A stretch of DNA of 64,000 nucleotides from the IMG/VR virus record IMGVR_UViG_3300010413_001187, positions 2,131 through 66,130 of that record; one strand, given 5' to 3'. How positions within the stretch are numbered: position 1 is the first letter of the stretch; the number at the start of each line of letters is the position of its first letter. The DNA is from a virus. Its lineage: Duplodnaviria; Caudoviricetes. Below the pieces are notes generated by a model. That model was not told where the DNA came from and ran no database searches. It was given only the letters and a program-made list of their open reading frames with translations. The position numbers were made by a program, and so were the translations under genes. Positions 37,591 through 64,000 of the stretch are shown here, in pieces.

Positions 37591-37832
37591 ATGAGCTAGA
37601 TCAGTATATAACCTCATATAATAAAAGTAGAAAACGAGAAAAATCTGGTAGGACTATTGGATTGTGGCTTACAGGCGGTGAAAGAATAATAGGAGAACTT
37701 GTGAGGCATGAGACTAATAAATTATATGTTAAAGACTGGTTAGACCATGGTATAGAGAAAGAAATCCATAGAGCGACAGTAGCGAGATTCATGATTATAA
37801 TAGAGGGAGGAATGGATGGAAAAGAAGAGTAG
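37587..37832 (+). CDS. Sm/Hfq-like small protein
   Basis: 'TIGLWLTGGERIIGELVRHETNKLYVKD...EIHRATVARFM' aligns by eye with the Hfq Sm1/Sm2 pattern. Confidence 0.5.
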   Translation: MNELDQYITSYNKSRKREKSGRTIGLWLTGGERIIGELVRHETNKLYVKDWLDHGIEKEIHRATVARFMIIIEGGMDGKEE

Positions 37833-39249
37833 CAATATGATGCGTGGAACATCAATAGTAACACCAGCGGGAGTACCGATTAGGTCTTTTAATACGCAGG
37901 TAGCAGAAGGTACACCGATGGTGGATATGGAATCAACCAAAGAAGATCCAGGAAAGAAAATCAGACTGGTTTATTATGGTGATGCTCCTAGTGTAGCAAC
38001 AGGGTTTGGGAAGGTATCTAAAAATATTCTAGGACCTTTATATCAGACTGGCAAATATGAGATATTTTGTTTTGGAGTAAATTATATGGGAGTCCCGCAT
38101 CCTTTCCCATTTCAAATTTACCCTATGTTACCTAATCCTCAAGGGGATCCATATGGAAGAGAAAAAGTTAAACAAATAATTCCACAAATGGAATTTGATT
38201 TATTGTTTATGTTACAAGACTCATTTATTATGACTTTCATACCAGATCTGGTAAATGATCTTAAAAGAAGAGGAAAACCATTCCGCTCAGTAGTCTATTT
38301 TCCTATAGATGGTGAGCCGGAAGCAGATTGGATAGAAGCTATGTCACATGCAGATGTTTGTGTGACATATACAGAATTTGGGCGAAAACAATGTATAACT
38401 AAATACCCACCCATAGCAGAAAAATTACAAATCATACCTCATGGTATAAGCTTAAAAGAATTTTATCCTAAACCACCAGAAGAAATAAAAAGGATGAGAG
38501 AATTTTATTTTGGCTCACATGCTAACAAGTTTATAGTGATGAATGTAAATAGAAATCAGCAAAGAAAAGATATTCCTAGATCAATGGTGGCATTCAGAGA
38601 ATTTAAAAAACAATGTCCTAATAGCCTATACTATTTACATTGTGCAGAAAAAGATGTTGGTTGGGACCTTAGGAAGGTGGCACGTAATATTGGATTGGTC
38701 GTTGGCGAGGATATTATGTTCCCTAAAAATTTTAATGTAAATACAGGGGTACCTGTTTCAGTCGTTAATGATTTATATAATTGTTGCGATGTTGTCATAA
38801 GTACTTGCGTTGGCGAGGGCTGGGGTTTAAGCTCAGTTGAAGCTATGGCTACTGGTACCCCAGCAATTTTTCCGGATAATACATCTTTGACAGAGATTTT
38901 TGCTGATGGAAGAGGATTCTTGTGTAGAAGTGGAGACACTCCAAACTTCTGGACTTTTATGACAATGGATAATGACGTGGCTAGACCCCTAGCTAATATC
39001 AATGATTTGGTTAAATACCTGAAAAGATTATACGAAAAACCTGATATAGGTAGGAAGATGGCACAAAAATCTCTTAGATGGGTACAGGATAATCTACAGT
39101 GGGAAAAGAATATAGTTCCACGGTTTGATAATATATTGATGCAATTATATAATGATCTAAAAAATCCTAAACAGCATGATAGATTGCCTGGAGAAACACC
39201 TGTTAAAGAAGCGGCATCAAAGGGATGGAAGCAAGGAGAGATGATATAA
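37816..39249 (+). CDS. Glycosyltransferase, GT4 (GT-B)
   Basis: DAPSVATGFG, YFPIDG, IPHG, VNRNQQRKD, GEGWGLSSVEAMATG. Confidence 0.9.
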   Translation: MEKKSSNMMRGTSIVTPAGVPIRSFNTQVAEGTPMVDMESTKEDPGKKIRLVYYGDAPSVATGFGKVSKNILGPLYQTGKYEIFCFGVNYMGVPHPFPFQIYPMLPNPQGDPYGREKVKQIIPQMEFDLLFMLQDSFIMTFIPDLVNDLKRRGKPFRSVVYFPIDGEPEADWIEAMSHADVCVTYTEFGRKQCITKYPPIAEKLQIIPHGISLKEFYPKPPEEIKRMREFYFGSHANKFIVMNVNRNQQRKDIPRSMVAFREFKKQCPNSLYYLHCAEKDVGWDLRKVARNIGLVVGEDIMFPKNFNVNTGVPVSVVNDLYNCCDVVISTCVGEGWGLSSVEAMATGTPAIFPDNTSLTEIFADGRGFLCRSGDTPNFWTFMTMDNDVARPLANINDLVKYLKRLYEKPDIGRKMAQKSLRWVQDNLQWEKNIVPRFDNILMQLYNDLKNPKQHDRLPGETPVKEAASKGWKQGEMI

Positions 39250-40409
39250 TGACAGATGACACAAACAGAATAAAAGTAGAATTAAAGGGATTAAAGATTG
39301 TCTCATGTGTTTTTGATGGATCTGGGTATGGGCAGGGTGTAAGAAATTGGATAAAAGGACTACATTCTTTTAATATTCCGATGTATATTCAACCAGTTTC
39401 TTTTGAACGCGATAGACCAGATTTAGGTGAAGATTTTGAGTTATTAGATGGGTTAGCCAGAACTCAAAGACCATGCGATGTAAATTTTGTTCGTCTAAGC
39501 CCAGAAATAGCTATCAATTTCTTGGATCCATCTATGATAAATATCTGTAGTTGTGCTTGGGAGACTACTAAGTTAGACAAACATTGGGTGGATTGTTGTA
39601 ATAAATTTGATGCTGTTTTTGTTGAAAGTAAATGGTTGGTACAGGTATTTAAATCATCGGGGGTTCAGGTTCCTGTATATTGTGTTCCTAATATGGTAGA
39701 TACGTCATTATTTAAAATAAAAACAGAGCCTAATTTGGATAAGACCTATGTGTTTTATTCTATTCAACAATGGATCGAAAGAAAAAATGGGCTAGGGTTA
39801 TTGAAAGCATATTTCAATGCATTCTCACCAGCTGATGATGTACTATTGGTATTAAAAACATATATGACACGGGTAGAAGCTAATATAGAACAAGGACAAA
39901 AGATAAAAGAAGATATAGAGCATATAAAAAGAAGTCTTAATATGGACAAAGAATTCCCTCCTATTTATTTAGTCACAGATAAACTAATGACTGATGATTT
40001 GATTCGAATGCATGAAGAATGTGATTGCTATGTACTATTTGATCGTGGTGAGGGGTTTGGTTTGCCATATATGGATGCGGCAGCAGCTGCAAATCCTATT
40101 ATAAGAACAGATTTTGGTGGCACAGGAGAATTTTTAAACTCTAACAATTCATATGGTACTCGTTGTCAACCAACTTTTGTTTGTAATATGGAATGGTCCC
40201 CATATTATAGGGGAGATCAGTTATGGGCTGAACCTGATATAGTTCATGGCGCTAGTTTAATGAGACATGTTTTTGAGAACAGAGAAGAAGCCTTTAAAAA
40301 AGGCAGGCAAGCCAGAGAAGATATGGAAACAAAATTTAATAGGGATATAATTACTCAGCGTTTATTGAATGCTATATCAGATTTATTGAGATCTAAAAGG
40401 GGTGGATAA
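39249..40409 (+). CDS. Glycosyltransferase, GT4 (GT-B)
   Basis: SGYG, AWET, ERKN...LLKAY, RGEGFGLPYMDA; start placed at the TAATG overlap. Confidence 0.88.
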   Translation: MTDDTNRIKVELKGLKIVSCVFDGSGYGQGVRNWIKGLHSFNIPMYIQPVSFERDRPDLGEDFELLDGLARTQRPCDVNFVRLSPEIAINFLDPSMINICSCAWETTKLDKHWVDCCNKFDAVFVESKWLVQVFKSSGVQVPVYCVPNMVDTSLFKIKTEPNLDKTYVFYSIQQWIERKNGLGLLKAYFNAFSPADDVLLVLKTYMTRVEANIEQGQKIKEDIEHIKRSLNMDKEFPPIYLVTDKLMTDDLIRMHEECDCYVLFDRGEGFGLPYMDAAAAANPIIRTDFGGTGEFLNSNNSYGTRCQPTFVCNMEWSPYYRGDQLWAEPDIVHGASLMRHVFENREEAFKKGRQAREDMETKFNRDIITQRLLNAISDLLRSKRGG

Positions 40410-41311
40410 TGCCTCGCGCTATACCGATACCTGATAGGATTTCTGTAATCATAGCTATACATAATAGAGCTAATTTATTACGTTATGGTCTAATGGGAAT
40501 ATATGATCAATTTTTAATCAATGATGGCAGAATAGATGTTGAACTAAATATAGCTGATGATGGATCCACAGATGATCTAGACGATCTTTTAGAACAAGTT
40601 AGTGGTGAATATGAATGGGTTGTTAATAAATATACAACAAGTCCATTAGACGAAAGATTTTTTCGCAGATTCAATTGTCCAGCGGCTAAATATAATTTTT
40701 TAGTAGCCGCGAGTTCTGAACCATTTATATTGAAAATAGATCCAGAATTTGTTTTAATAACGAAGGGTTTTGTAGAAGATTGTTTGATTCAATTAAACAG
40801 TGGAGCCTTCATGCCATATTTTTTGATGCCATACCCATATCATGTTTATGATTTTAAATATTCCTCATTAGAAGATATTAAAGAAAAATACAAAGATCAT
40901 GTATATGAAACACACATAAGCCCACAAACTGCACATTACAATAATGTTTATTATGCTTGTATGTTTAGACGAAAAGCATTTATACAGCTTGGAGGGATAG
41001 AGATGCTGTTTTTAGATGGCATAGGTAGTGAAGATGATCATTTTCTTGATCAATGGAGAAGGCATTATGGTAATTATGTTGAAACTCTAATGGGACATAA
41101 AGGCATTCATCTCTGGCATGGAGAGTGGGGTAAGGGAGTACCACAGGAATTATACGGATGGGTAAATAAGAACGCTTCCCTAAGAAAAGATCTTGATAAA
41201 ATTCTTCCCAATAAAGGTGATTTTGCTTCAATAAAATTTCCATTAATACATAAACAAACATGGGAAGACGGAAAAAAACTAGAAGGTAAATATTGGAGAG
41301 TAGATATATAA
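40409..41311 (+). CDS. Glycosyltransferase, GT2 (GT-A)
   Basis: ISVIIAIHNR, ADDGSTD, LGG...GIGSEDD, HLWH. Confidence 0.85.
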   Translation: MPRAIPIPDRISVIIAIHNRANLLRYGLMGIYDQFLINDGRIDVELNIADDGSTDDLDDLLEQVSGEYEWVVNKYTTSPLDERFFRRFNCPAAKYNFLVAASSEPFILKIDPEFVLITKGFVEDCLIQLNSGAFMPYFLMPYPYHVYDFKYSSLEDIKEKYKDHVYETHISPQTAHYNNVYYACMFRRKAFIQLGGIEMLFLDGIGSEDDHFLDQWRRHYGNYVETLMGHKGIHLWHGEWGKGVPQELYGWVNKNASLRKDLDKILPNKGDFASIKFPLIHKQTWEDGKKLEGKYWRVDI

Positions 41312-42243
41312 TGAATATAGCAGCACTTGGCCCCAATTATTCGGATTTGGGGCTTAGCACAATAATAGATGGATTATTAGATTTAGGACACAAAGTATAT
41401 GATGTAGGTGGTGGGGGATTGAATTATATGGAACCATTTACACAGGAATCACCAAAAATTGATTTCTATATGATGGCAGATACTGATAATTTACGTGGTA
41501 TGAGAGAACAATCAGATGTACCAAAGGTTATAGCACATTTACATGATAGGTGGACGGACTATATATCAGTTCCAGACAGCCCAATTAAATATCCTAACAT
41601 GGCTGAAGCTATATTTGATATAATGTTCTATCGTGATTATGACGGCAGTCTGGGGGATGATGTATATCCGATGGAGTTTGGTATTGAACGCAGATTTAAT
41701 GAGGCATGTCAAAATATGATCCCTTTCCCTAATAGAGAGTTTGATATTTCTTTCTATGGCACTAGAGCGACTGCCCAGCGGTGGATGATTCTAGATGATC
41801 TAGCTAAAATGTTCAAATGTGATTTTGGTGATCAATTAAAATTTAAGGAACCAGATGATTACTGGTCCAAATGGGTTAATGGTAGATATGTACATGCCCC
41901 TAAGTATTATGAAGCAATGATGAATTCTAAGATGGTGTTTTGTGGGCTAGGGGCTGGGGCTAGTTGCGGAAGAACTTATGAAGCTTACGCGGCGGGCTGT
42001 GTGCCACTAATACAAAGGTATCCGTCAGAGATAATTCAATTAGTCTCTTTTGAAGACGGACGAAATTGCATACTTTGGTCTACTGCAGATGAATTAAAAT
42101 CAAAAATAAAAGAATGGTTATCAAGTCCTTATGATCTAGTAAAATTAGCAAATTCTTGTTATGTCTTTGGACAGGAGAATTTGCTCTCAAGGCATAGAGC
42201 CCAATATATGCTTGATAAGATGTATGAAAGAGAAGTTATATGA
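41311..42243 (+). CDS. Glycosyltransferase (GT-B, CgeB/Glyco_trans_1_2-like)
   Basis: REFDISFYG, YYEAMMNSK...G.G..CGRTYEAYAAGC, FEDGRNCI. Confidence 0.75.
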   Translation: MNIAALGPNYSDLGLSTIIDGLLDLGHKVYDVGGGGLNYMEPFTQESPKIDFYMMADTDNLRGMREQSDVPKVIAHLHDRWTDYISVPDSPIKYPNMAEAIFDIMFYRDYDGSLGDDVYPMEFGIERRFNEACQNMIPFPNREFDISFYGTRATAQRWMILDDLAKMFKCDFGDQLKFKEPDDYWSKWVNGRYVHAPKYYEAMMNSKMVFCGLGAGASCGRTYEAYAAGCVPLIQRYPSEIIQLVSFEDGRNCILWSTADELKSKIKEWLSSPYDLVKLANSCYVFGQENLLSRHRAQYMLDKMYEREVI

Positions 42244-43040
42244 AATTATCTTTAGTTATGGCTTCCAGCAACAGTGATTTTGGTAATATTATATTTAGAG
42301 ACCCTGAGCCAGCTGTTCCCACGCCTGAGCATAAAAGATTGGAATTGTGTATCTATACTTTGCACGAAGCTTTTAAGGCGGTAGATTATGAAGTTGTGTT
42401 TATTGAATGGAATAGACTAGAGCATAGAAAACCATACAGGGAATATGATTTCATGCAGCACCCTAGAATTCGTGTTATAGAAATTCCTAAATCTTTTAGT
42501 GAAAAAGTATTAGGTACAGACTTACAATTCCATGAGATGTGGGCCAAGAATATAGGGATACGAAGAGCTGTGGGTGAATATATATTAGGTACTAATATAG
42601 ATGTATTATGGCTGTATCCTTTTAAAGAGAGCTTTTTAGAGAGTTGGCCTATGGTTGCCTGGAGATGGAGTGTATATCATCCAGTACTAGATCTGGGAAA
42701 GGATATGGATTCACTTAGGAACTATTGTTTTAATGACCGTAACAGATTAGATCATGATAGAAATAGTAATGGAGATTTTACATTATTACATAAAGAAGGA
42801 TGGGAGAGATTACAGGGCTATTCCATAACTCTAGAAGGATGGGCAGGGCAGGATATGTGGATGGTAAAAAGGGCATCTGATTTCTATCAACGTCTTTACG
42901 AACTTCCATTTCCTATATTTCACATACGTCATCCAGGAGCGCCACTCGCTTCATCATATGGTGTAACTAATATCTCTCCTGATTGGGGAGCACCAAAAGA
43001 GGATTTTTCTGAATGGATAAATGGAGAACAAATCAAATGA
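42240..43040 (+). CDS. Glycosyltransferase, GT2-like
   Basis: LSLVMAS, YEVVFIEWN, AKNIGIRRAVGEYILGTNID, GDFTLL...W..LQGY, FHIRH. Confidence 0.75.
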   Translation: MKLSLVMASSNSDFGNIIFRDPEPAVPTPEHKRLELCIYTLHEAFKAVDYEVVFIEWNRLEHRKPYREYDFMQHPRIRVIEIPKSFSEKVLGTDLQFHEMWAKNIGIRRAVGEYILGTNIDVLWLYPFKESFLESWPMVAWRWSVYHPVLDLGKDMDSLRNYCFNDRNRLDHDRNSNGDFTLLHKEGWERLQGYSITLEGWAGQDMWMVKRASDFYQRLYELPFPIFHIRHPGAPLASSYGVTNISPDWGAPKEDFSEWINGEQIK

Positions 43041-43609
43041 TAATGGATCTATTGGATATAACATCAGTAGTAGCTGCACATGAGATGTGTAAGAATGCAG
43101 CAAGATATAGACCAGAGATGGGAAGGAAAGGTATTGTTGGTTTACTATCTGGAGCATGGGATTTATTTCATTATAGTCATCTGAGAGCTATACAACAGGC
43201 TAGACGGCTATGTGATTTTCTTTTAATAGGGGTTGGCACAGACCGGTTAGTTGGAGAGAATAAAGGTCTTTTAAGGCCTATAATAGTACAGGAACAGAGA
43301 TTAGCTATTGTAGCTAGTCTGAAAGAAGTAGACATAGCTTTCCTGATGGACAGTGAGTTTGATTATGGTGAGGTGGCTCTATCACTAGTAGTACCTTATA
43401 ATGGCGTAATGTTTAAATCCAAAGAATGGTTAGATCAATTAGAAGCTATTCCAGGGTTTGATGAGACTGCTGGATATGATCCTGGATATAATAAAACTGT
43501 CGAAGTAAACCGAATAGGTAATGTTATAATCTTAGATCGAGGGCCTATTAGTACTTCTAGTATAATCTCTGGGATATGTAAAAGATTAGAGGAATATAAA
43601 TGCATATAG
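43037..43609 (+). CDS. Cytidylyl/adenylyltransferase (RfaE domain II / TagD-like)
   Basis: SGAWDLFHYSH, LLIGVGTD..V..NKG..RPI, ISTSSII. Confidence 0.85.
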   Translation: MIMDLLDITSVVAAHEMCKNAARYRPEMGRKGIVGLLSGAWDLFHYSHLRAIQQARRLCDFLLIGVGTDRLVGENKGLLRPIIVQEQRLAIVASLKEVDIAFLMDSEFDYGEVALSLVVPYNGVMFKSKEWLDQLEAIPGFDETAGYDPGYNKTVEVNRIGNVIILDRGPISTSSIISGICKRLEEYKCI

Positions 43610-44271
43610 TTACCGAACATCCCATAGCTCTAGATTCTAATGACCATCTGAAACCATGGGGAGCCATTCAGGATTATGGAGACCCTACTAATTTATGTAA
43701 TTATATGATTACTGAATGGCCAGATAAAAAAACTTTATTAGATTTAGGCACAGCAAACGGTTCAGTAGTTGCTGGTGCAACATTTATGGGCTATGATGCT
43801 TATGGTATAGAAGGATCAGATGCTGCTCGAAAAGGACAAGGAGAGTCTGAGCCATGGGGGATTTATTATAATACTAGACTATTCAATGCCGATTTACGCT
43901 ATCCATTTTATCTTTATAAGACTATGCAGGGATATTTCAATAGAAGATGTGATATACATTATGAAACATATGATCTTCTATGCACATTTTCGTTAATTAC
44001 AGCTTGGGATGTCATGGAACATCTAACTGAGGACACGATTGATGTCACCATGAATAATATAGCTAGGCATAGCCATAGAGGTACATTCTTCTTAGCTACT
44101 ATCCAGTTTGATAATGTTGGTAATAAACTATATCACCATCTACTCAAGCATAGAGAGTGGTGGTTGGCTAAATTTGCAGAATTTGGATTTAAAAATAAAG
44201 GATTTTGTGGTGCTCATGAATTAATGCGTGGGGTTCCACAGCCAAATAGATTTTGGTTTGAAAAAGAATAA
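43600..44271 (+). CDS. Class I SAM-dependent methyltransferase
   Basis: LLDLGTANG, AYGIEGS, ITAWDVMEHL. Confidence 0.85.
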   Translation: MHIVTEHPIALDSNDHLKPWGAIQDYGDPTNLCNYMITEWPDKKTLLDLGTANGSVVAGATFMGYDAYGIEGSDAARKGQGESEPWGIYYNTRLFNADLRYPFYLYKTMQGYFNRRCDIHYETYDLLCTFSLITAWDVMEHLTEDTIDVTMNNIARHSHRGTFFLATIQFDNVGNKLYHHLLKHREWWLAKFAEFGFKNKGFCGAHELMRGVPQPNRFWFEKE

Positions 44272-52090: not shown

Positions 52091-52111
52091 TAAATGTGTA
52101 GGAGACAAGAC

Positions 52112-53517: not shown

Positions 53518-53674
53518 TAGATGTAATTTTAATCCAAATGTTAGAGAAGATTTACCGCCTGTGCATATGCCTAATGGGGATCTAATATATAAGATATTAA
53601 AAGAAAAATCAAAACAAATTATGGACGAATGGGATAGACAAGATATGATTGAAAGAGAGAAGTATGTCGATTAA
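53510..53674 (+). CDS. Small hypothetical protein (54 aa, not in the ORF track)
   Basis: MCSRCNFNPNVREDLPPVHMPNGDLIYKILKEKSKQIMDEWDRQDMIEREKYVD fills the gap and overlaps both neighbours. Confidence 0.45.
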   Translation: MCSRCNFNPNVREDLPPVHMPNGDLIYKILKEKSKQIMDEWDRQDMIEREKYVD

Positions 53675-56580: not shown

Positions 56581-56589
56581 GAGCGGCAA

Positions 56590-57648: not shown

Positions 57649-57651
57649 ATT

Positions 57652-57900
57652 ATGAAGATTAAATCTTGTTTATGTGTTCACGCAGAACGTATTTATGTGG
57701 AATACCTTGGAGCCACCTTATTAGACATGGAACATGTTACGTGTTATTGTAAAGGTGAGCCACGTAAGGTAAATGTAAAACATTGTGATAAATGTGAAAT
57801 AGAAATAGAGGATGAAACAGATGACGACTTTCCACGATGGGCGAAAAGTAAGATTAAAGCCTCTTACAGAAAACACTTCATTGAGAATAGTGGAGAATAA
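57652..57900 (+). CDS. Small Cys-rich hypothetical protein
   Basis: CLC, CYC, CDKC. Confidence 0.5.
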   Translation: MKIKSCLCVHAERIYVEYLGATLLDMEHVTCYCKGEPRKVNVKHCDKCEIEIEDETDDDFPRWAKSKIKASYRKHFIENSGE

Positions 57901-58090
57901 ATCTCTACTTTGTAAAACATGTATATTAGGTGAAGAGATTAGAAGTAATACTGTATTATGCAATCTAAATCCAGAACAAAGAGAGGTAAAAGCCACAGGG
58001 TTTTGTGGACAAGGCGTGTGGGTAATTGATGGCGAAATAATGGATTTCAAAGAGGCATGGAGTCATATTAACAAGGAGGATAAATGTTAG
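57812..58090 (+). CDS. Small Cys-rich hypothetical protein
   Basis: CKTC...C..NP.......FCGQG; overlaps the upstream ORF. Confidence 0.5.
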   Translation: MKQMTTFHDGRKVRLKPLTENTSLRIVENKSLLCKTCILGEEIRSNTVLCNLNPEQREVKATGFCGQGVWVIDGEIMDFKEAWSHINKEDKC

Positions 58091-59076
58091 CGAGGTACAA
58101 GAGAGGAATTCCCTATAATAAAAGAATATTGGTAACCGGTGATCGGGGCTTTTTAGCACATCATTTAATTCCAGAATTAGAAAATAAATACCCAAGAGCA
58201 GATATAGTAAAACCACAGGGACGAAAATTTTTTGATCTAACCAGACAAGAACAAGTTGAAGCTATGTTTAAGTCTATGACAGAAGAAGGATATGTATCAG
58301 AAATATGGAATCTTGCTGCACTCTCTGGTGGTATAGAAGATAATAGAAATAGACCAGCCCAATATTATTATCAAAATCTTATGATCACAACAAATATATT
58401 AGAAACAGCAACTGTTTTTAAGGCTCGTAGATTAGTTCAATTCATGGGCGGATGCTCCTATCCTAACAAGGAGGGTGAAGATTTATTTACCGAAGAAATG
58501 ATGTGGGAGGGCCGTCCAGTTGGTACCTCAGCTGGCTATAGTATGGCAAAGAAAATGTCAATTATAGCCGCTGAGGTTTATGAACAACAATTCGGAATAA
58601 ATACAACAGTATTAATTCCTACAAATATGATTGGTGAGTGGGATAATTTTCATCCTGTAGAATCTCATGTCGTTCCTGGATTAATTGCTAGATTTATAGA
58701 GTCAAGGGAAGAGGGATATAAAACTGTTTCTGTATGGGGCAGTGGCAAGCCTGTCAGGGATTTTATTTATGCTGGGGATGTGGCTAAAATTGCAGTGGAA
58801 ATAATTCCTAAATATAAAAAGGTTGGTCCTATTAATATATCTACAGGTAAGGGAACATCTATCGCTGAATTAGCTGAGATTATTATGAAAGCTGTAGGAT
58901 TTGATGGTACAATACATTTTGATAGAAGTAAACCAGACGGTCAAATGCATAAAGTTCTTGATAATACTAAGATGATGAATGCCATTGAAGAATTTGCATT
59001 TACCTCTGTAGAAGAGGCTGTGGGGAGGACAGTAGAATGGTGCGAGAGGCGGATAATGACCAAGAAGCAACCCTAG
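58084..59076 (+). CDS. GDP-L-fucose synthase-like epimerase/reductase (Fcl/WcaG family)
   Basis: DLTRQEQV, LAALSGGI..N...PA, CSYP, YSMAK, PTN..G..DNF...SHVVPGLI, VWGSGKPVRDFIY, DRSKPDG. Confidence 0.9.
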   Translation: MLARYKRGIPYNKRILVTGDRGFLAHHLIPELENKYPRADIVKPQGRKFFDLTRQEQVEAMFKSMTEEGYVSEIWNLAALSGGIEDNRNRPAQYYYQNLMITTNILETATVFKARRLVQFMGGCSYPNKEGEDLFTEEMMWEGRPVGTSAGYSMAKKMSIIAAEVYEQQFGINTTVLIPTNMIGEWDNFHPVESHVVPGLIARFIESREEGYKTVSVWGSGKPVRDFIYAGDVAKIAVEIIPKYKKVGPINISTGKGTSIAELAEIIMKAVGFDGTIHFDRSKPDGQMHKVLDNTKMMNAIEEFAFTSVEEAVGRTVEWCERRIMTKKQP

Positions 59077-59318
59077 ACTATATATTAGATAGATTCAAAA
59101 CTAATAAACACATGAGAATAAGTTTAACACAGGACATTACTGGTCTTGCCAACGATGTACATCCAGAATATTTATTAGCTTTAATTAGAAGTGCTTGGAA
59201 GTCCTGGGAAGAAAAGAAAAAATCTAACATAGCAAAAACTATTGCTGGGCCAATGTATTATGACTCTTTTTTAGAGATTATGGAGAATGATGTTAGCGAC
59301 GAAGTTAAAGGCGCATAA
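59037..59318 (+). CDS. Hypothetical protein
   Basis: 93-aa ORF in the gene run. Confidence 0.5.
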   Translation: MVREADNDQEATLDYILDRFKTNKHMRISLTQDITGLANDVHPEYLLALIRSAWKSWEEKKKSNIAKTIAGPMYYDSFLEIMENDVSDEVKGA

Positions 59319-59784
59319 AGAATATATATCTTATTTTTTCAGACATAAATACTGGGTATATATAGAAGGAAAAAAGTTAGGGCTCCCAAGATGGAGATTA
59401 TTAGTTCATGACTTATCTAAACTAAGGCCTTCCGAATGGTTTGGTTATGTTAATTGGAAGTATAGTCAAATAATTAATGAAGGTGGGGGAACTAATAAGA
59501 ACAATAGAGGCTATGGAAGAAGCTGGCACCTTCATTATCTTAGGAATCCACATCATTATCAGCATTGGTTGTATATTGATGATCAAACCGGAGAGTGTTA
59601 TCCTGTGGAGATGCCAGATATTTATAGAAGAGAGATGCTTGCAGACTGGTCATCTGCTGGAATAGTGAGGTTTGGCAAACCAGGTTTATGGGAATATTAT
59701 CAAGCTAATGAAGAGATTCTGAGGAAACTCATTCACCCACAGACCTTGGGATGGTTAGAAAAGGAGATTAAACATGGTGGATAG
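59287..59784 (+). CDS. DUF5662-like (HD-related) phage protein
   Basis: HK..V, HDLSK..PSE, H...NPHH..HW, EMLADW. Confidence 0.7.
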   Translation: MMLATKLKAHKEYISYFFRHKYWVYIEGKKLGLPRWRLLVHDLSKLRPSEWFGYVNWKYSQIINEGGGTNKNNRGYGRSWHLHYLRNPHHYQHWLYIDDQTGECYPVEMPDIYRREMLADWSSAGIVRFGKPGLWEYYQANEEILRKLIHPQTLGWLEKEIKHGG

Positions 59785-60745
59785 AATAAGTTTAGAAAGA
59801 GGACTAAATCATCATGCTATAATAGGAAGTAATGGATTTATAGGTAGTGCACTAAAACGCTATGCTGATACACATTATTCTGAACAATTCTTAAGTAAAT
59901 GGCACGGAATAACTAGAGAAAATTATATGGGGTATAGAGGTAATCGTTTTAATAGAGTTATTTGGGCCGCTGGTAACCCGTCTAAGGAATATTGTCAAGA
60001 AAATCCTGAAAGATGTATGTATGATAATGCTTATATGGTACTGGAGGCTCTGAAAGATTTTCCTGCATATCAGTTTATATATATATCTAGCCAAGCGGTA
60101 TACACTGGTGAACAAAGAGAAGACTCCTTCATTGATATAGCTAAACTAGATACATATGGCTTATCCAAATATGTAGGTGAACTAATGGTGAAAGATTTTT
60201 GTGGATCGCATCAGATTGATTATATTATTATTAGGCCAAACGGTTTTACTGGGCCTGGATTAAAGAAAAATATAGTTCATGAAATAGCTACAGGATATAC
60301 CTTAAAGAAGACATGGGACAGTCGAGCACAATATATACATGTAGATACTTTTGCAGATATAGTATTATTTTTGACATTTAATCGTTATTTAGATTATAAA
60401 ATACTTAACGTTGCTCCGCCTGATGTTTTAACCCCCGTAGATATTGCTCGTATACTTAACAAAGATCTAACACAGATTAAACAACCTTCTAACGGTAATG
60501 TGAGGCACACAGATGCCGTTATGGATGTAACAAAAATGTTTAATCTTTTAAACAAGTATAAAAGATCAATCCCAACTAGTGAAAGAGCAGTGAGGTTATG
60601 GAATGAACCAGCTGAAGTATCAATGTCTGTTTTGCGGGGTCCAATGGGGGAATCCTGCCGCGGGAGAGGATCAGATATCGCATGGAATTTGTCCCGTGTG
60701 CGTTCGAATAAACCACACGGAATTAATACGGAAACACCAGATTAA
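59774..60745 (+). CDS. NAD-dependent epimerase/dehydratase (short form)
   Basis: IIGSNGFIG, YISSQAVY, YGLSK. Confidence 0.85.
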   Translation: MVDRISLERGLNHHAIIGSNGFIGSALKRYADTHYSEQFLSKWHGITRENYMGYRGNRFNRVIWAAGNPSKEYCQENPERCMYDNAYMVLEALKDFPAYQFIYISSQAVYTGEQREDSFIDIAKLDTYGLSKYVGELMVKDFCGSHQIDYIIIRPNGFTGPGLKKNIVHEIATGYTLKKTWDSRAQYIHVDTFADIVLFLTFNRYLDYKILNVAPPDVLTPVDIARILNKDLTQIKQPSNGNVRHTDAVMDVTKMFNLLNKYKRSIPTSERAVRLWNEPAEVSMSVLRGPMGESCRGRGSDIAWNLSRVRSNKPHGINTETPD

Positions 60746-60899: not shown

Positions 60900-61503
60900 G
60901 AGGGAAACGCAATTAGCAAAAGAAGGCTATAATCTAATAGCCGGTGTAGATGAAGCTGGTTTAGGGCCTTTGGCTGGACCGGTGGTGGCTGCAGCGGTAT
61001 CTTTTGATTTGTCTAATTTCAAGAAAATAAAAAATCTAAATGATTCAAAACAATTAACAGAAAAACAAAGAGAAGAATTATTTCCAATCATCTATAATGA
61101 GGCTAAGAGTATTGGAGTCGGAATAATTTCAGTTAAAATTATAGACATTATCAATATATATTGGGCTGGTAGGCAAGCCATGATCGAAGCAATTAAAAAT
61201 ATGTACTTAGCACCAGATTATTTATTGATAGATGGGAATAAACCCCTTAAAATAGATATAGCACAAGAAAGTATAGTAAAAGGAGACAGTAAAGTATTAT
61301 CTATAGCCGCAGCTAGTATTATAGCTAAGGTTACACGAGATAGACTTATGATAAAATATCATGAAGTATATCCCGAATATGATTTTATAAATAATAAAGG
61401 ATACAGAACACCTAAACATTTAGCTGCACTGGAAGAATACGGAATCACTCCTATTCATAGACGCAGTTATAAAGATGTACAAAGGTGTATGGAGGCACAA
61501 TGA
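60862..61503 (+). CDS. rnhB: Ribonuclease HII
   Basis: AGVDEAGLGPLAGPVVAAAV, DSKQL, LIDGN, KGDS...SIAAASIIAKVTRD, KGY.T..H. Confidence 0.95.
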   Translation: MVAETEKFIPSFKRETQLAKEGYNLIAGVDEAGLGPLAGPVVAAAVSFDLSNFKKIKNLNDSKQLTEKQREELFPIIYNEAKSIGVGIISVKIIDIINIYWAGRQAMIEAIKNMYLAPDYLLIDGNKPLKIDIAQESIVKGDSKVLSIAAASIIAKVTRDRLMIKYHEVYPEYDFINNKGYRTPKHLAALEEYGITPIHRRSYKDVQRCMEAQ

Positions 61504-62249
61504 TAGAAAGAAAATGGGGTTGGAAGAAAGATTTACCTGATCCTAGAGATCCTAAGTATAGGGCACCAAGAATAGCTATCCCGGCACATGTCGATCTAAG
61601 GAGCGGTTGTTCACCTGTAGAAGACCAAGGAAATCTAGGAAGTTGTACAGCAAACGCTTTAGCTGGAGCATTAGAGTTTTTAGAAATTAAAAACAAAGTT
61701 CCTTTCAAAGATTTTAGCAGATTAATGTTATATTTTGCTGAGAGAGAACAAGAGGGTACAATACATGAAGATGGTGGTGCCATGCTTCGTACTGGAGTTA
61801 AAGTCTTAGAGCAACAAGGAGTATGTTACGAAACTACATGGCCATACCTCATCGAAAATTTTGATGTCAAACCTGACAAGAAAAGTTATAAAGAAGCTGA
61901 AGAACACCAGATAACCTCTTATCAGAGAATAGACACTATAGGGCAATTATTTTCTTGTTTAGCTAGTGGATATCCTATCGCATTTGGATTCGTTGTCTTC
62001 GATTTTGTTAAATCTGAAGAAGTAGCTAAGTCAGGAATATTGCCTATGCCAACAGACCCAGAAGCACAAGCATTAGGAGGCCACGCTGTTCTTATGGTTG
62101 GTTATGATATGAAAGCAGAACATTTCATTATAAGAAACTCATGGGGTCCCGAATGGGGAGATAAAGGTTATTTCTATATGCCTTTTGGTTATATAGAGGA
62201 AGGATTTTGCGCAGACTTCTGGACTATACGAAAAGGTGAAGGAATGTAG
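61500..62249 (+). CDS. Papain-family (C1A, xylellain-like) cysteine peptidase
   Basis: DQGNLGSCTANA (Cys), GGHAV (His), RNSWG (Asn); N-terminal GW..DLPDPRD. Confidence 0.92.
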   Translation: MIERKWGWKKDLPDPRDPKYRAPRIAIPAHVDLRSGCSPVEDQGNLGSCTANALAGALEFLEIKNKVPFKDFSRLMLYFAEREQEGTIHEDGGAMLRTGVKVLEQQGVCYETTWPYLIENFDVKPDKKSYKEAEEHQITSYQRIDTIGQLFSCLASGYPIAFGFVVFDFVKSEEVAKSGILPMPTDPEAQALGGHAVLMVGYDMKAEHFIIRNSWGPEWGDKGYFYMPFGYIEEGFCADFWTIRKGEGM

Positions 62250-62591: not shown

Positions 62592-63342
62592 GGCAACTAG
62601 ATTAAGATCGATTACCAAAGATGAAATACCAAAGATTATGGTTCCAATAAAAGGGGTTACTCTTTTCTTAGACTATTTTATAAAAAATTTGTATAATCTA
62701 GGTGTTAGAAATATAATCTTTGCAGCTGGATTTAGAGCAGACCAACTAGAATATGAATTAGAACTAATGGAAAGAGTATCTAAAGGATATTTATTTCCTA
62801 GATGTTATGTAGCTAAGGAAGATGAGCCTTTAGATACAGGCGGCGCTGTACTTAATGCAATGAATACTTTTCCGTTACATAGCAATCCTTTCATAATAAT
62901 TAATGGTGATACATTGGCCTTATTCAGAGATGCTGAATGTTTAGAAGAAATATATTATACTAACAATTGTTATTTTAGACCTAAATGTTTAATATTAGGA
63001 AAATATATGGAACATGATGGACGTTATGGTACAATAGATCATATGCCTTCATATAGGCAAGTAGATGGTATATTGCCACCAACAAACACACCTAGCAAAG
63101 GGATTATTAATTCTGGCTGGTACTTTTTTAGAAGAGAATTCTTTGATCCTTATAAAGCGAAAAAAGGAAGCAAGCTATATGATGCTAGTAAGCGATCTCT
63201 GGACAATGACATAATTGAGAGTAAATGCCATGGGATAGAACAACCTGAATATACGGATGATTTCACATTTGAATTTCTAGAAATAGGAACACCAAATGCT
63301 TTGGAGGAAACTAAAAAAAGATTAGCACTAGGAGTATATTAA
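62563..63342 (+). CDS. Sugar-phosphate nucleotidyltransferase (HddC-like)
   Basis: CGGKATRL......PK.M, EDEPLDTGGA, INGDT, INSGWY, EIGTP. Confidence 0.85.
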   Translation: MDAIVICGGKATRLRSITKDEIPKIMVPIKGVTLFLDYFIKNLYNLGVRNIIFAAGFRADQLEYELELMERVSKGYLFPRCYVAKEDEPLDTGGAVLNAMNTFPLHSNPFIIINGDTLALFRDAECLEEIYYTNNCYFRPKCLILGKYMEHDGRYGTIDHMPSYRQVDGILPPTNTPSKGIINSGWYFFRREFFDPYKAKKGSKLYDASKRSLDNDIIESKCHGIEQPEYTDDFTFEFLEIGTPNALEETKKRLALGVY

Positions 63343-63343
63343 A

Positions 63344-64000
63344 ATGATTATTTCAAGCTGTCCTACAAGGATCAGTCTTGGCTCGGCTGATCATAGCCCC
63401 TTCGCTGAGAGATGGGGCGGAATAGCTTTGAACTTTTGTATTAATAAGAGAGTCTATGTATTTAGAGAGATTTAAATATAGGATCTCGTATTCAAAAACA
63501 GAGTTGTGTAATTCAATAGATGAAATAGAAAATTCCATAGTAAGAGGCGCACTAGATATGCTTGATATGGATATGCCTTTGGAGATAATCTATTCATCTG
63601 ATGTTCCTACTAGACTTGGTTTAGGCACAAGTAGTTCATTTACTTTAGCGATGCTGAAAGGATTATATATGTTAAGGAATGCATCAATCTGTCATGAGAT
63701 ATTGGCAGATAAAGCTTATAAATTAGAGAGAATTAATCTTAAGGAGGCTGGAGGATTTCAAGATCAATATAGTTGCTTTGGCGGAATAAATTATCTCACT
63801 GGTAGCCCACCTGATGTTAGACGAAGATCTATTCCATTGGGGCCTGAACAAGCTAAAGATATGGAACAACATATGTTACTGATATATACCGGTAAACAAG
63901 GTAATTCACCAGAAGTATTATCAGATCAATTAAAGAAGCTAAAGAAAGGTAAAACTCTTGAGGAAACAATAAAGATAAAGAGACTAGTTGAAGAGATGTT
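63344..64000 (+). pseudogene. GHMP kinase (HddA, heptose-7-phosphate kinase-like), split by a frameshift and truncated by the window end
   Basis: Frame 1: MIISSCPTRISLG...INKRVYVFREI* (stop 63473-63475). Frame +1 continues KYRISYSKTE...SDVPTRLGLGTSSSF...GFQDQY..FGGIN...LIYTG. Confidence 0.75.

Follow-up and report, generated by a model that had tools for sequence, protein, structure and literature searches.

What does a virus build with some 26 kb of sugar genes, and onto which acceptor would the product be placed? The question is raised by IMG/VR virus record IMGVR_UViG_3300010413_001187 (G000; ~17% complete), of which we analysed a stretch of 64,000 nucleotides (the window). An earlier note on this DNA had described a glycan island at 37816-64000 and read it as a viral, membrane-independent pathway. 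The viral origin holds, as the sequence is a virus record whose gene order is the same in four IMG/VR relatives of 47-545 kb, with synteny over 15 consecutive genes, from that of a 3396-aa protein to the first island glycosyltransferase (GT4#1), in all four. For three of these relatives, viral contigs of 211-545 kb, CheckV gives a completeness of 86-100% (17% for the 47-kb relative), and one relative, G004, encodes a Terminase_6N domain (T4-type terminase). The contig ends at 64000 within a GHMP kinase gene, and the island is therefore truncated. We conclude that the source is an uncultured huge phage and that the island is an enlarged version of a variable glycan-biosynthesis slot. The reading that we favor, with a probability of roughly 0.85, is that the phage encodes here a set of soluble enzymes which together make a modified glycan.

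A conserved edge and an exchangeable cassette

A Pfam profile search of the 35 plus-strand ORFs in 37816-64000 (E<=0.001) found a family for 28, of which 25 are glycan-related; the ORFs at 42240, 55117, 56263, 57652, 57812, 59037 and 60603 matched none. The island is real at this level, comprising about eight glycosyltransferases, five SDRs, five methyltransferases, three sulfotransferases and one APS kinase, together with DegT, GNAT and heptose-activation genes. Its left edge consists of the following genes.

37587..37832, + strand: conserved small protein of 81 aa, its end overlapping the start of GT4#1; no family match
37816..39249, + strand: GT4 glycosyltransferase #1, core gene; PF00534 38.7 bits (cut-off 26.4), phrog_2170 E 6e-45
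39225..40409, + strand: GT4 glycosyltransferase #2, core gene; PF00534 26.3 bits (cut-off 26.4), phrog_2170 E 7e-23

Homologs of the small protein, 48-58% identical, occupy the same position in all four IMG/VR relatives and occur also in L019 and L021. GT4#2 is a paralog of GT4#1 and clusters with it; identities in the relatives G001, G003 and G004 are 62-69% for GT4#1 and 57-62% for GT4#2. GT4#1 belongs to a virus-specific family with 167 IMG/VR relatives; across 185,579 species genomes, relatives occurred on just two short MAG contigs, and one of these displays phage synteny. Residues 1-45 of GT4#1 are variable and disordered. An AF2 model was obtained (pLDDT 82), for which the best PDB match is 3oy2, a glycosyltransferase of chlorovirus NY-2A (Z 38.8).

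The position of the GT4 pair is widely maintained. Among 66 dereplicated IMG/VR loci of the wider family, the pair follows DnaB in 65, primase in 65, DnaJ in 62 and RuvC in 55, and it is succeeded by a cassette of at least three different types that is closed by PolA. The island is flanked by recombination genes on one side and DNA polymerase on the other, both in the window and in each of the 66 loci; in G004 its far end is marked by PolA, NrdD and a C5 DNA methylase. Virion genes are not adjacent to it, and in this respect the reading of the earlier note is not supported. When the 35 island ORFs were compared with G001, G003 and G004, 12 had homologs in all three, 15 in some and eight in none. 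The slot is therefore kept across relatives while its enzymes are exchanged, the window's cassette being much enlarged, and from this pattern the virus probably builds its own variable sugar decoration.

Sulfation, amino-sugar and heptose genes

Beyond the GT4 pair, the first part of the window's cassette contains glycosyltransferases interspersed with tailoring enzymes.

40409..41311, + strand: GT2-like glycosyltransferase, marginal; PF00535 23.0 bits (cut-off 23.3)
41293..42243, + strand: Glyco_trans_1_2 (CgeB-type) glycosyltransferase, core in the window's clade; PF13524 34.1 bits
42240..43040, + strand: candidate GT-A-fold glycosyltransferase, a lead only; no Pfam match, Atlas structure matches
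43013..43609, + strand: cytidylyl/adenylyl-transferase-like sugar-phosphate nucleotidyltransferase; PF01467 37 bits, rfaE_dom_II 59.7 bits (cut-off 181.5)
43600..44271, 44293..44910 and 44889..45671, + strand: three SAM-dependent methyltransferases; PF13489 31.4 and 53.2 bits, PF13578 33.9 bits
45671..46579, + strand: GT17-like glycosyltransferase, sub-threshold; PF04724 24.3 bits (cut-off 26)
46579..47580, + strand: SDR nucleotide-sugar epimerase/dehydratase of the amino-sugar module; PF01370 130 bits
47580..48731, + strand: DegT-family PLP sugar aminotransferase; PF01041 362 bits, PseC 319 bits (cut-off 423.5)
48728..49471, + strand: sulfotransferase, Sulfotransfer_1 type; PF00685 61.6 bits, motifs PRSGT and RNPLDVAVS
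49443..50357, + strand: GT17-like glycosyltransferase; PF04724 28.1 bits (cut-off 26)
50367..51386, + strand: window-specific SDR, possibly a sugar C4 dehydrogenase or dehydratase; PF01370 128.8 bits, PDB 6vo6 4.9e-24
51392..52090, + strand: GNAT N-acetyltransferase, WecD-like lead; PF00583 44.1 bits, NF008212 68 bits (cut-off 219)
52094..52855, + strand: Methyltransf_24 (TylF-class) methyltransferase, core; PF13578 55.1 bits
52942..53517, + strand: APS kinase (APS to PAPS); PF01583 80.1 bits, P-loop GMSGAGKT
53649..54401 and 54383..55120, + strand: two Sulfotransfer_2 sulfotransferases; PF03567 44.7 and 36.4 bits
55117..56081, + strand: 147-aa ORF (55117) and Methyltransf_11 methyltransferase (55506-56081); Pfam family for the methyltransferase only

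The two GT2-like genes counted earlier fared differently. That at 40409, with homologs in G001, G004 and L019, is a marginal Pfam match, whereas the second, probably 42240 (homologs in G004 and L019), matches only structures in the Atlas, which are viral GT2/GT-A clusters at TM 0.69-0.81; from this modeled similarity it is probably a GT-A-fold glycosyltransferase. The CgeB-type gene, present in two copies in G001 and also in G003, G004 and L019, gave no tblastn match among 50,697 phage records. Homologs 35% identical to the GT17-like proteins were found in L019 for 45671 and in G003 and G004 for 49443, the latter having no match in phage records.

The amino-sugar module (two SDRs, DegT and GNAT) occurs in the window only; its SDR at 46579 has no match in G001, G003 or G004, and the best PDB match of the DegT protein is ArnB (9e-55). 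The TylF-class methyltransferase is represented in G001, G003, G004 and L019, and the 55506 protein shares 46% identity with a homolog in G001. In the sulfation arm, both Sulfotransfer_2 proteins carry the motif PKTAGT, and the 53649 protein has RDPVDRVIS in addition; neither gene has a match in phage records. Sulfotransferases are present in four of the five records, and APS kinase homologs stand at the matching relative position in G001 and G003, with none in G004.

The remainder of the island combines heptose genes with genes of other kinds.

56590..57648, + strand: SDR like the PDB 6vo6/6vo8 enzyme, core; 6vo6 E 8.8e-71, 242 bits
57652..58090, + strand: two small overlapping ORFs of 82 and 92 aa; no family match
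58084..59076, + strand: GDP-L-fucose-synthase-like SDR (4-keto sugar epimerase/reductase), core; NF047922 224 bits (cut-off 500)
59287..59784, + strand: DUF5662, a phage-typical domain; PF18907 100 bits, viral Atlas clusters
59774..60745, + strand: divergent SDR, core; PF01370 57.2 bits
60862..61503, + strand: RNase HII; NF000594 273.5 bits (above cut-off 243)
61485..62249, + strand: papain-family (C1) cysteine peptidase; PF00112 72.5 bits
62545..63342, + strand: sugar-1-phosphate nucleotidyltransferase (NTP_transferase), HddC-like lead, core; PF00483 51.2 bits, HddC 70 bits (cut-off 300)
63456..63998, + strand: GHMP sugar kinase, HddA-like lead, core, cut by the contig end; PF00288 42.2 bits

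The SDR at 56590 (40-55% identity in G001, G003 and G004) is read, from its similarity to PDB 6vo6, which we take to be C. jejuni Cj1427, as a putative GDP-heptose C4 dehydrogenase. PDB GDP-fucose synthases match the SDR at 58084 at 5e-48, and its identity in relatives is 48-52%. For the SDR at 59774 no PDB sequence match was obtained; it and the second small ORF, at 57812, have homologs in G001, G003 and G004. The nucleotidyltransferase also has homologs in relatives, and the truncated kinase is 54-61% identical to their full-length proteins of 327-330 aa, just downstream of which there is a SIS-domain (GmhA-like) gene, as the very next gene in G004 and after one intervening ORF in G003. By family assignment, the kinase and nucleotidyltransferase of the window and the SIS isomerase of the relatives form a heptose-activation module. 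This module, the 6vo6-like C4 dehydrogenase and the GDP-fucose-synthase-like reductase constitute a layout shared with the Campylobacter capsule heptose pathway. A cupin C3/C5 epimerase and a GmhB phosphatase were not seen by Pfam in the window.

Sulfation, methylation, amino/acetamido sugars and a heptose module, all proposed earlier, are well founded on Pfam, NCBIfam and PDB matches and on motifs. The names RfaE-II, HddC, HddA and WecD stand at the family level and are leads only, since their scores fall under the NCBIfam cut-offs. The block, which had been described as glycan genes, also includes the RNase HII, papain-like peptidase and DUF5662 genes. The peptidase has no match in relatives and is confined to the window, while RNase HII, an enzyme of DNA metabolism, keeps its placement among the glycan genes of relatives at 52-57% identity. 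The earlier designation of a candidate new system is too strong, as sugar clusters of jumbo phages (PMC7824862), glycosylation of mycobacteriophage virions and the hypermodification of phage DNA with glycans have all been published; among such clusters the island is notable for its sulfation arm and Campylobacter-type heptose module.

Candidate acceptors

During infection, the enzymes would draw on host sedoheptulose-7-phosphate, nucleotides, SAM and APS to build up, within the cytoplasm, a heteroglycan bearing methyl and sulfate groups. The conserved, virus-specific GT4 pair may start the chain on a conserved acceptor, with outer sugars supplied by the variable cassette. As the likeliest of the acceptors considered, though at somewhat short of even odds, we tentatively propose a protein of the virion (fibre, capsid or tail), in which case each phage lineage would have its own type of surface glycan.

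A hydropathy scan confirmed that polytopic membrane proteins are absent, with none of the 54 window ORFs having two or more hydrophobic 19-mers and six having a single one. The absence of priming, flippase and polymerase genes was likewise upheld and extends to five records, two of them near-complete: Bac_transf, Wzx and Wzy_C were each found in 0/5, and the WecA/MraY family in 0/5 over the cut-off. The conclusion drawn earlier, that the acceptor is cytoplasmic, cannot be derived from the lack of membrane genes. Enzymes that add sugars to undecaprenyl-linked or lipid A-core acceptors are likewise soluble or peripheral, and priming and export could be left to the host. The phage enzymes might therefore build an oligosaccharide on a host lipid-linked acceptor, such as undecaprenyl-PP-GlcNAc or lipid A-core, at the inner membrane face, with a host priming transferase, flippase or ABC transporter, and ligase completing its export; the altered surface would block superinfecting phages during long infection or pseudolysogeny. 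We consider this possible but doubtful. WaaG, PimA and PglA, which use lipid-linked acceptors and need no transmembrane helices, match the GT4#1 model at Z 30-32, many GT4#1 relatives carry the Pfam family 'GT4-conflict', and a universal acceptor such as Und-PP-GlcNAc would fit a conserved initiating pair with variable outer enzymes. However, envelope glycan pathway enzymes are usually common to bacteria, whereas the GT4#1 family is nearly absent from cellular genomes, and homologs 33-37% identical occur in phages of Tetrasphaera and Synechococcus, hosts with widely different envelopes. Ligase families, too, were found in none of the five records, and no ORF of G004 exceeds three hydrophobic segments, so that a foreign sulfated, methylated unit would have to pass the host export machinery. 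In print, sugar clusters of 15 and more genes in jumbo cyanophages have been interpreted as host-envelope remodelling, with polymorphism among related phages cited in support (PMC7824862, section 3.4.10).

The same section proposes secondary metabolites as products of jumbo cyanophage sugar/amino-acid modifying clusters, and the enzymes here could similarly make a soluble glycoconjugate or a sugar-bearing small molecule, or could glycosylate host proteins or phage proteins outside the virion, serving secondary metabolism or host takeover. The tailoring of sugars in natural products also typically involves TylF-class O-methyltransferases and DegT/SDR sets, and BshA- and MshA-type small-molecule enzymes are close structural matches of GT4#1. 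This explanation appears improbable, as aglycone-forming genes (PKS, NRPS, cyclases) were found neither in the window nor in the fetched relatives' islands, the number of glycosyltransferases points to an oligo- or polysaccharide, and a slot kept across a large phage family with varying content is more in keeping with a recognition surface than with a metabolite.

Location within the replication/recombination module, in the window and in 66/66 wider-family loci, and in G004 beside PolA, NrdD and the C5 DNA methylase, would fit a scheme in which the GT4 pair glycosylates a modified base and the cassette extends and decorates this glycan to guard against restriction and CRISPR nucleases. Phage clusters that place heptose and di-heptose on 5hmC have been demonstrated and comprise a cytidylyltransferase and a GT-B enzyme, the latter resembling T4 beta-GT and also BshA, MshA and PglH (bioRxiv 10.1101/2023.12.21.572611); the thymidine substituent of phage YerA41 is described as oligosaccharide-like and ~1 kDa (PMC9023294). 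We nevertheless judge DNA an unlikely acceptor. In 12 of the 66 loci the two GT4 genes are separated by a divergent ThyA-like gene, but ThyX occupies the equivalent place in four, which suggests ordinary thymidylate synthesis, and the five records of the window's clade yielded no thymidylate-synthase-family gene and thus no hydroxymethylase. Pfam revealed no 2OG oxygenase in G004 (68/72 ORFs >=230 aa and 115/116 ORFs of 120-229 aa outside 3-70 kb); Tet/JBP was found in 0/5 records, in a search whose positive control likewise gave no match. The several site-specific DNA methyltransferases and restriction-enzyme-like genes of G004 fit ordinary bases, and GT4#1 family members show no consistent basic character (median pI 6.2, n=17), a weak argument. 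The sheer complement of glycosyltransferases, sulfotransferases and methyltransferases is also far above any DNA glycan described in the portions of the literature consulted.

Against a virion-protein acceptor stand the lack of virion genes next to the island, the interleaved RNase HII gene, a GT4 homolog that comes after the primase gene in S-EIVl, the nearly equal matches of WaaG, PimA and PglA to GT4#1, and the several enzyme names that fall below their cut-offs. Pointers toward it are the near virus-only GT4#1 family, its homologs in phages of very different hosts, and the structural match to the chlorovirus enzyme. Gene neighborhoods provide further pointers: the GT4#1 homolog of S-CBS4 lies between portal and head protease genes, that of TJE1 is part of a sugar cassette which immediately precedes the terminase genes, and in G004 an additional sulfotransferase is located with the fibre-side genes.

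Gene content of the island

When the 35 plus-strand ORFs between 37816 and 64000 were run against Pfam (family call at E≤0.001), a family match was obtained for 28, and 25 of those 28 are glycan-related. The earlier note had described this region as an island of glycan enzymes, a description that is confirmed by 25 glycan-related ORFs among 35 and needs correction in its finer assignments: the specific names RfaE-II, HddC, HddA and WecD all fall under the NCBIfam cut-offs, as does the PseC model for the DegT aminotransferase.

Pfam assignments in the island, by ORF start coordinate
37816, 39225; + strand; GT4 glycosyltransferases (2), here GT4#1 and GT4#2
40409; + strand; GT2, marginal
41293; + strand; Glyco_trans_1_2 (CgeB-type) transferase
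43013; + strand; cytidylyltransferase-like protein
43600, 44293, 44889, 52094, 55506; + strand; SAM methyltransferases (5)
45671 (sub-threshold), 49443; + strand; GT17-like proteins (2)
46579, 50367, 56590, 58084, 59774; + strand; SDR epimerase/dehydratases (5)
47580; + strand; DegT aminotransferase (362 bits)
48728, 53649, 54383; + strand; sulfotransferases (3)
51392; + strand; GNAT
52942; + strand; APS kinase
62545; + strand; NTP_transferase
63456; + strand; GHMP kinase
within the island; + strand; non-glycan matches: RNase HII, papain-like peptidase, DUF5662

ORF 42240 is without a Pfam match, and its structural model pairs with viral GT2/GT-A clusters in the Atlas (TM 0.69-0.81), making it a candidate eighth glycosyltransferase. 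A tblastn search of 50,697 phage records returned no match for the CgeB-like transferase, for one GT17-like transferase or for one Sulfotransfer_2 gene.

The three sulfotransferase domains score 61.6, 44.7 and 36.4 bits against a Pfam cut-off of 22. All three proteins carry a PKTAGT or PRSGT motif, and two carry RDP or RNP, with REP in the third; we take the former to be 5′-PSB-like and RDP/RNP to be 3′-PB-like motifs of sulfotransferases. By sequence, the three ORFs are thus predicted sulfotransferases with PAPS-binding loops. The APS kinase (80.1 bits against 21.1 in Pfam) retains its P-loop. Because ATP sulfurylase (PF01747) is absent from all five records searched, namely the window's own record and four relatives, the host is the presumed source of APS for this kinase. 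Four of the five records carry Sulfotransfer_2 genes, and the near-complete relative G004 has an extra sulfotransferase among its fibre-side genes, at 255.5 kb; homologs of the APS kinase are found in the relatives G001 and G003, and none in G004. In large phages, cysC, the APS kinase gene, is treated as a sulfur-cycle auxiliary metabolic gene in one account (PMC13172472). Here the gene lies between sulfotransferases in a glycan island, which points instead to PAPS supply for glycan sulfation, and the usual reading of cysC annotations in large phages should change in this light.

A second branch of the predicted chemistry concerns heptose. ORF 56590 matches PDB entries 6vo6/6vo8 with E 8.8e-71 and 242 bits, the next match reaching 46 bits. 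The database title of 6vo6 is only 'putative sugar-nucleotide epimerase/dehydratase'; we take this structure to be Campylobacter jejuni Cj1427, the GDP-D-glycero-D-manno-heptose C4 dehydrogenase, and on that identification ORF 56590 would be a Cj1427-like C4 dehydrogenase. ORF 58084 matches GDP-L-fucose synthases in the PDB (5e-48) and scores 224 bits with NF047922 against a cut-off of 500. The truncated kinase ORF 63456 scores 42.2 bits with GHMP_kinases_N in Pfam and 48.5 against 600 with the NCBIfam HddA model, and nucleotidyltransferase 62545 scores 51.2 bits with NTP_transferase and 70.3 against 300 with HddC. In G004 a gene for a SIS_2 protein follows the kinase immediately, and in G003 such a gene comes after one further ORF (E 1.5e-18 and 1.4e-14). 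Taken together, the kinase, the nucleotidyltransferase, SDRs 56590 and 58084 and the SIS gene of the relatives would match in layout the pathway for capsule heptose in C. jejuni.

That pathway comprises GmhA, HddA, GmhB, HddC, Cj1427, Cj1430 and Cj1428 and feeds an exported capsule (PMC10680097). The window shares with it a GHMP kinase, a nucleotidyltransferase, a 6vo6-like SDR and a GDP-fucose-synthase-like reductase, with the SIS gene in relatives; unlike the C. jejuni set, it shows neither a cupin C3/C5 epimerase nor GmhB, and the equivalog models are not reached. Specifically, Pfam scans of the window found no HAD phosphatase, and no cupin or dTDP-sugar-isomerase family was present among the 35 island ORFs, 7 of which have no family at all. 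The C. jejuni account places the GmhB gene likewise outside the capsule heptose cluster (PMC10680097). A 4-amino or 4-acetamido sugar is a further plausible product, because DegT 47580 is nearest to ArnB, QdtB and perosamine synthases in the PDB and SDR 50367 is 6vo6-like (4.9e-24).

The absence of a priming transferase, a flippase and a polymerase, remarked on in the earlier note, extends beyond the window. In family searches of the same five records, Bac_transf (PF02397), Wzx (PF01943) and Wzy_C (PF04932) were found in none, and WecA/MraY-type PF00953 in none over the cut-off, with a single 16.7-bit match in a 108-aa ORF of G004. Controls were positive in 10-13 of 14 genomes (PF02397 in 10 of 14, PF00953 in 12 of 14). 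The window likewise lacks a polytopic membrane protein, a permease of the Wzm type included, as had been noticed: by Kyte-Doolittle hydropathy, none of its 54 ORFs has two or more hydrophobic 19-mers. In G004, 15 of 385 ORFs have 2-3 hydrophobic segments and none has more than three; every 3-segment ORF encodes only 91-141 aa, and the two longest 2-segment ORFs are glycosyltransferases. On these searches, priming and export are not encoded by the phage. The cytoplasmic acceptor that the earlier note had drawn from the missing membrane genes does not follow, because the host has these carrier-lipid functions and could supply them.

Phage relatives and a slot of variable content

The source record of the window, IMGVR_UViG_3300010413_001187, is a virus record assembled as a single 66,130-base contig that lacks a terminal repeat; contig and window share their right end, which falls within the kinase gene at 63456. 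CheckV estimates its completeness at 17%, from which a full genome of roughly 390 kb would be expected. The long ORFs of the window all lie on the plus strand, and upstream of the island they include three giant ORFs of about 24 kb together, followed in order by a 668-aa protein and by genes for sliding clamp, UvsX/RecA, an HNH protein, DnaB, primase, DnaJ and RuvC.

Selected features upstream of the island
386-7786; + strand; giant ORF, 2466 aa
10526-20716; + strand; giant ORF, 3396 aa
20701-27201; + strand; giant ORF, 2166 aa
27201-29207; + strand; 668-aa protein, 14 homologs on contigs up to 658 kb, no family match
32294-32656; 120-aa HNH/homing-endonuclease-like ORF between UvsX and DnaB

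The 2466-aa protein has a discoidin domain and tail-protein PHROG matches. The 3396-aa and 2166-aa proteins gave no Pfam, PHROG or PDB sequence match, and a regular-expression search found no DxDxD motif of the RNA-polymerase type in either; the 2166-aa protein has full-length counterparts, 43-48% identical, in four relatives. The giant ORFs presumably encode virion or ejection proteins. The N-terminal ~300 residues of the 668-aa protein form a run of short H-x-P-x-D-L-type repeats, and its C-terminal domain is highly conserved, with many invariant Trp, Pro and Gly residues. Scans for tRNAs and Rfam families found nothing, and promoter and terminator scans gave counts at chance level.

Cultured phages are remote from this lineage: none gave a megablast match to 20 kb of the island, and the closest DnaB in phage records is 26.5% identical. 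Scanning IMG/VR with the window's DnaB as a single protein returned no relative. A profile built from homologs of the 668-aa protein retrieved four IMG/VR contigs of 47, 211, 260 and 545 kb (CheckV completeness 17, 86, 96 and 100%), among them the 260-kb, near-complete G004, which encodes a Terminase_6N domain, domains of fibre type and numerous proteins of DNA metabolism. The virus record, its syntenic viral relatives and the terminase domain of G004 together uphold the viral rather than cellular nature of the contig, on which the earlier note had depended. All four relatives keep 15 consecutive genes, from the 3396-aa protein to GT4#1. The latter is 62-69% identical over its full length, compared with 30-60% for most neighbour genes; a 543-aa protein is conserved to a similar degree (67%).

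Downstream of this block the gene set varies. When the relatives' downstream ORFs were compared with the window by BLASTP and assigned by best hit, 12 of the 35 island ORFs had homologs in all of G001, G003 and G004: both GT4 genes, the CgeB-like transferase, methyltransferase 52094, SDRs 56590, 58084 and 59774, ORFs 57812 and 60603, RNase HII, the nucleotidyltransferase and the kinase. Another 15, the APS kinase included, had homologs in some of these genomes, and eight (45671, 46579, 47580, 50367, 51392, 55117, 56263 and 61485) had none in the three; ORF 45671 has a homolog in a further locus, L019. Because its genes are without homologs in G001, G003 and G004, the predicted SDR-DegT-SDR-GNAT amino-sugar module is specific to the window in this comparison. 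In its place the relatives carry TylF-class methyltransferases, a 796-819-aa GT2+GT4 fusion, a hexapeptide acyltransferase and an ADP-ribosylglycohydrolase. The relatives' islands also contain homing endonucleases (two LAGLIDADG in G001; five LAGLIDADG and one HNH in G003, loci L010/L011), the window's island none, and such enzymes may drive cassette exchange. At its right end, the G004 island runs into a PD-(D/E)XK nuclease, an SDR, PolA, NrdD/NrdG and a C5 DNA methylase.

Several other genes of these relatives deserve mention. A 591-aa protein of G001 (L008, 2645-4417) and a 658-aa protein of G004 (L012, 1446-3419) combine many repeats of zinc-ribbon type with a region resembling nucleases and, at the C terminus, a Mom-family (GNAT-like) domain; they are 38% identical and are inserted at different spots among the first island genes. 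We considered the Mom-family domain of G004 as a sign of DNA modification and rejected it, since it belongs to a zinc-ribbon/nuclease-like protein whose position shifts between G001 and G004 and which looks mobile. Outside its island (loci L026-L037), G004 encodes R.HinP1I-like and BglII-like restriction genes, several DNA methylases, a PARP with WGR, an ADP-ribosylglycohydrolase, two TnpB/Cas12f-like genes, a volactin homolog, ClpB- and ClpP-like proteins, RNA ligases and a 1000-aa PAS histidine kinase with a receiver domain.

The GT4 pair across a wider phage family

GT4#1 has 715 homologs at E≤1e-10 among 8000 candidates scored, many of them on contigs of 100-658 kb. A 17-sequence profile found 167 relatives in IMG/VR, and the same kind of scan over 185,579 prokaryote species, one genome per species, found two, on MAG contigs shorter than 5 kb. 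These two GTDB contigs, L041 and L042 (a Saccharibacteria MAG and an Altiarchaeales MAG), encode members of the GT4#1 family (46-48% identity); they are probably mis-binned phage fragments, because L041 has the phage-type DnaJ-RuvC-392 aa-GT4 synteny. The practically virus-only GT4 pair is a convenient marker of this phage family, represented by 167 IMG/VR stretches, and a defined starting point for an acceptor search.

We used 80 of the 167 IMG/VR loci, which merged at GT identity of at least 97% into 66. Upstream of the transferase these encode DnaB (65 of 66), primase (65), DnaJ (62), RuvC (55) and a 389-aa PD-(D/E)XK nuclease (61), the last being replaced in the window's clade by an 81-aa gene. 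The 120-aa HNH-like ORF of the window occupies the same position in 49 of the 66 loci and, because it is kept in place in this way, may be a stable resident and not a mobile gene. A second GT4 paralog comes after the first in the wider family, and at least three downstream genes are present in only 45 loci. The cassettes beyond include GT2-SDR-DegT-hexapeptide transferase-GT2-GT2-SDR; GT2-GFO/IDH/MocA-hexapeptide transferase-GT2; and a set with UDP-GlcNAc 2-epimerase between two unassigned genes, followed by a DXD transferase and GT2. Three of the 66 loci have a sulfotransferase, and in 5 of 66 PolA closes the slot within 8 kb. Thus the survey of related genomes that the earlier note had proposed finds the island again as a slot among replication genes in all 66 loci, with variable content, and by gene order the window represents an enlarged form of this conserved slot. 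In the cultured cyanophage Synechococcus phage S-EIVl (L040), which has a GT4#1 homolog, a gene annotated as sulfate adenylyltransferase lies some 8 kb from it.

Domain and predicted fold assign GT4#1 to the GT4-type GT-B glycosyltransferases: PF00534 scores 38.7 bits against 26.4, and the AF2 model (pLDDT 82) has the two-Rossmann GT-B fold. Its best structural match is 3oy2, a putative glycosyltransferase of chlorovirus NY-2A, with a Foldseek E of 6e-24 (next 3e-18) and, in VIA, Z 38.8 and an rmsd of 2.6 over 370 residues, followed by BshA at Z 36.1. The Foldseek and VIA matches listed are GT4-family enzymes, and no T4 DNA glucosyltransferase is among them.

The acceptor of the glycan

We favour a virion protein as the acceptor, with a probability of about 40%, because the GT4#1 family is nearly virus-only, because of its genomic contexts in the phages S-CBS4 and TJE1, and because of the chlorovirus structural match. 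TJE1, which infects a Gram-positive actinobacterium, and the cyanobacterial phage S-CBS4 encode homologs 33-37% identical to GT4#1. The S-CBS4 gene stands between portal and head-protease genes, beside a galactosyltransferase and a methyltransferase, and that of TJE1 belongs to a short cassette of sugar genes that immediately precedes the terminase genes. Together with the fibre-side sulfotransferase of G004, these gene contexts are indirect pointers to virion-protein glycosylation. The combination seen here, soluble virus-encoded glycosyltransferases and sugar-nucleotide enzymes without a carrier-lipid pathway, is also that expected of virion glycosylation. In mycobacteriophages, phage-encoded soluble transferases reportedly decorate the phage's own capsid and tail proteins and are said to be encoded in small operons beside capsid genes (Freeman et al. 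2023, as cited in PMC12619734); to our knowledge, neither sulfation nor sugar-nucleotide synthesis is part of that system. This is the mechanism that we favour for the window, but none of the 10 phage-record matches of GT4#1 is a mycobacteriophage. Chloroviruses and giant viruses resemble the window in combining a virus-encoded GT4-fold transferase with sugar-nucleotide enzymes and in needing no host membrane pathway; they differ in their eukaryotic algal hosts and their gene sets, and 3oy2 is only 16% identical to GT4#1.

Remodeling of the host surface, with the host envelope as acceptor, strikes us as less likely, although it would accord with the structural closeness of the GT4#1 model to WaaG, PimA and PglA as well, and it is the published reading for the 'LPS' clusters of jumbo cyanophages such as P-SSM2 (PMC7824862). 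Those clusters are likewise large soluble sets of SDRs, sugar kinases, nucleotidyltransferases and paralogous transferases in big phages; like the island, they are polymorphic between relatives and have no experimentally demonstrated target (PMC7824862). The island belongs to another phage lineage (DnaB 26.5% identical at best), occupies a fixed RuvC-PolA slot with a virus-only GT4 anchor and is larger (>26 kb), and it has a sulfation arm, an APS kinase with three sulfotransferases that goes unmentioned for the cyanophage clusters (PMC7824862, section 3.4.10). Still less probable, in our judgment, is an acceptor on DNA, whereby, throughout a widespread group of large to huge phages, the virus-only GT4 pair in the replication module would start an oligosaccharide on phage DNA and the swappable cassettes would extend it into lineage-specific glycans. 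The slot does lie inside the replication module in every locus, and the S-EIVl homolog of GT4#1 directly follows the primase gene. Heptosylation of 5hmC by a phage cytidylyltransferase and a GT-B enzyme has been shown (bioRxiv 10.1101/2023.12.21.572611), and phage YerA41 has a thymidine substituent of ~1 kDa (PMC9023294). In 12 of 66 loci the GT4 genes are separated by a divergent ThyA-like gene, which would also fit, but ThyX occupies that place in 4 of 66, and the thymidylate-synthase family PF00303 is absent from all five records of the window's clade. G004 further encodes several site-specific DNA methylases and restriction-like genes, its Pfam scans contain no 2OG/Tet oxygenase (68 of the 72 ORFs of at least 230 aa and 115 of the 116 ORFs of 120-229 aa outside 3-70 kb), and GT4#1 proteins are not consistently basic (median pI 6.2, n=17); a search with Tet_JBP (PF12851) was silent, as was its control, and so says nothing either way. 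Clusters for phage DNA glycans also place transferases, a cytidylyltransferase and sugar enzymes near DNA-metabolism genes, but their defining feature is either a neighbouring C5 methyltransferase accompanied by a 5mYOX dioxygenase or a hydroxymethylase of the ThyA type. Neither was found in the window's clade, and the DNA glycans described there are far smaller than the window's gene set implies (Pyle et al., bioRxiv 10.1101/2023.12.21.572611; YerA41, PMC9023294). If glycans were nonetheless built on DNA, they would far surpass in complexity any nucleic-acid modification on record, in this case being methylated, sulfated and heptose-containing. To other products we assign the smallest share.

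The divergent ThyA-like gene, which may specify either a synthase or a hydroxymethylase, encodes ~250 aa and was seen in loci L046, L048, L068, L077, L079, L080, L084, L094, L099, L102, L104 and L114; in the PDB it comes closest to thymidylate synthases, with no more than 43.7 bits.

Several elements of this picture are already in print: sugar clusters of jumbo phages, core glycosyltransferases in aquatic jumbo phages (PMC12619734), virion glycosylation and DNA glycan hypermodification. The account of the 'Moraphages', aquatic jumbo phages, places four putative glycosyltransferases among the core gene groups, and the authors leave their target open (PMC12619734). By description only, these phages can be likened to the window's wider family, both being large uncultured aquatic phages with DnaJ, antitoxin-like genes and many homing endonucleases; the consulted sections of that account include no variable cassette, sulfation or heptose genes (PMC12619734). 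A literature search, with incomplete coverage of subscription journals and supplements, found no account of a phage glycan-sulfation arm or of sulfated phage glycans, nor of a Campylobacter-type heptose module in a phage or a GT4-anchored variable slot.

Should the product coat the particle, huge phages would make sulfated, methylated rare-sugar glycans without a membrane pathway, a bacterial-virus counterpart of giant-virus glycosylation, and a constant slot holding exchangeable cassettes would be equivalent to phage 'serotypes' subject to diversifying selection. We tentatively propose, while giving it somewhat less than even odds, that the particles of these phages wear self-made sulfated glycan 'serotypes', which co-infecting relatives exchange with the aid of homing endonucleases. 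The predicted 6vo6-like heptose dehydrogenase, soluble sulfotransferases and TylF-class methyltransferases are candidates for glyco-engineering. A different combination of sugar genes is seen in L023, a 9.8-kb metagenome contig on which a distant GT4#1 relative (35% identical) ends a 13-gene single-strand cassette containing an NTP_transferase, three GT2, two SDRs, three methyltransferases and a 'reversibly glycosylated polypeptide' (UDP-arabinose-mutase-type) gene, the last being unusual for a prokaryotic virus.
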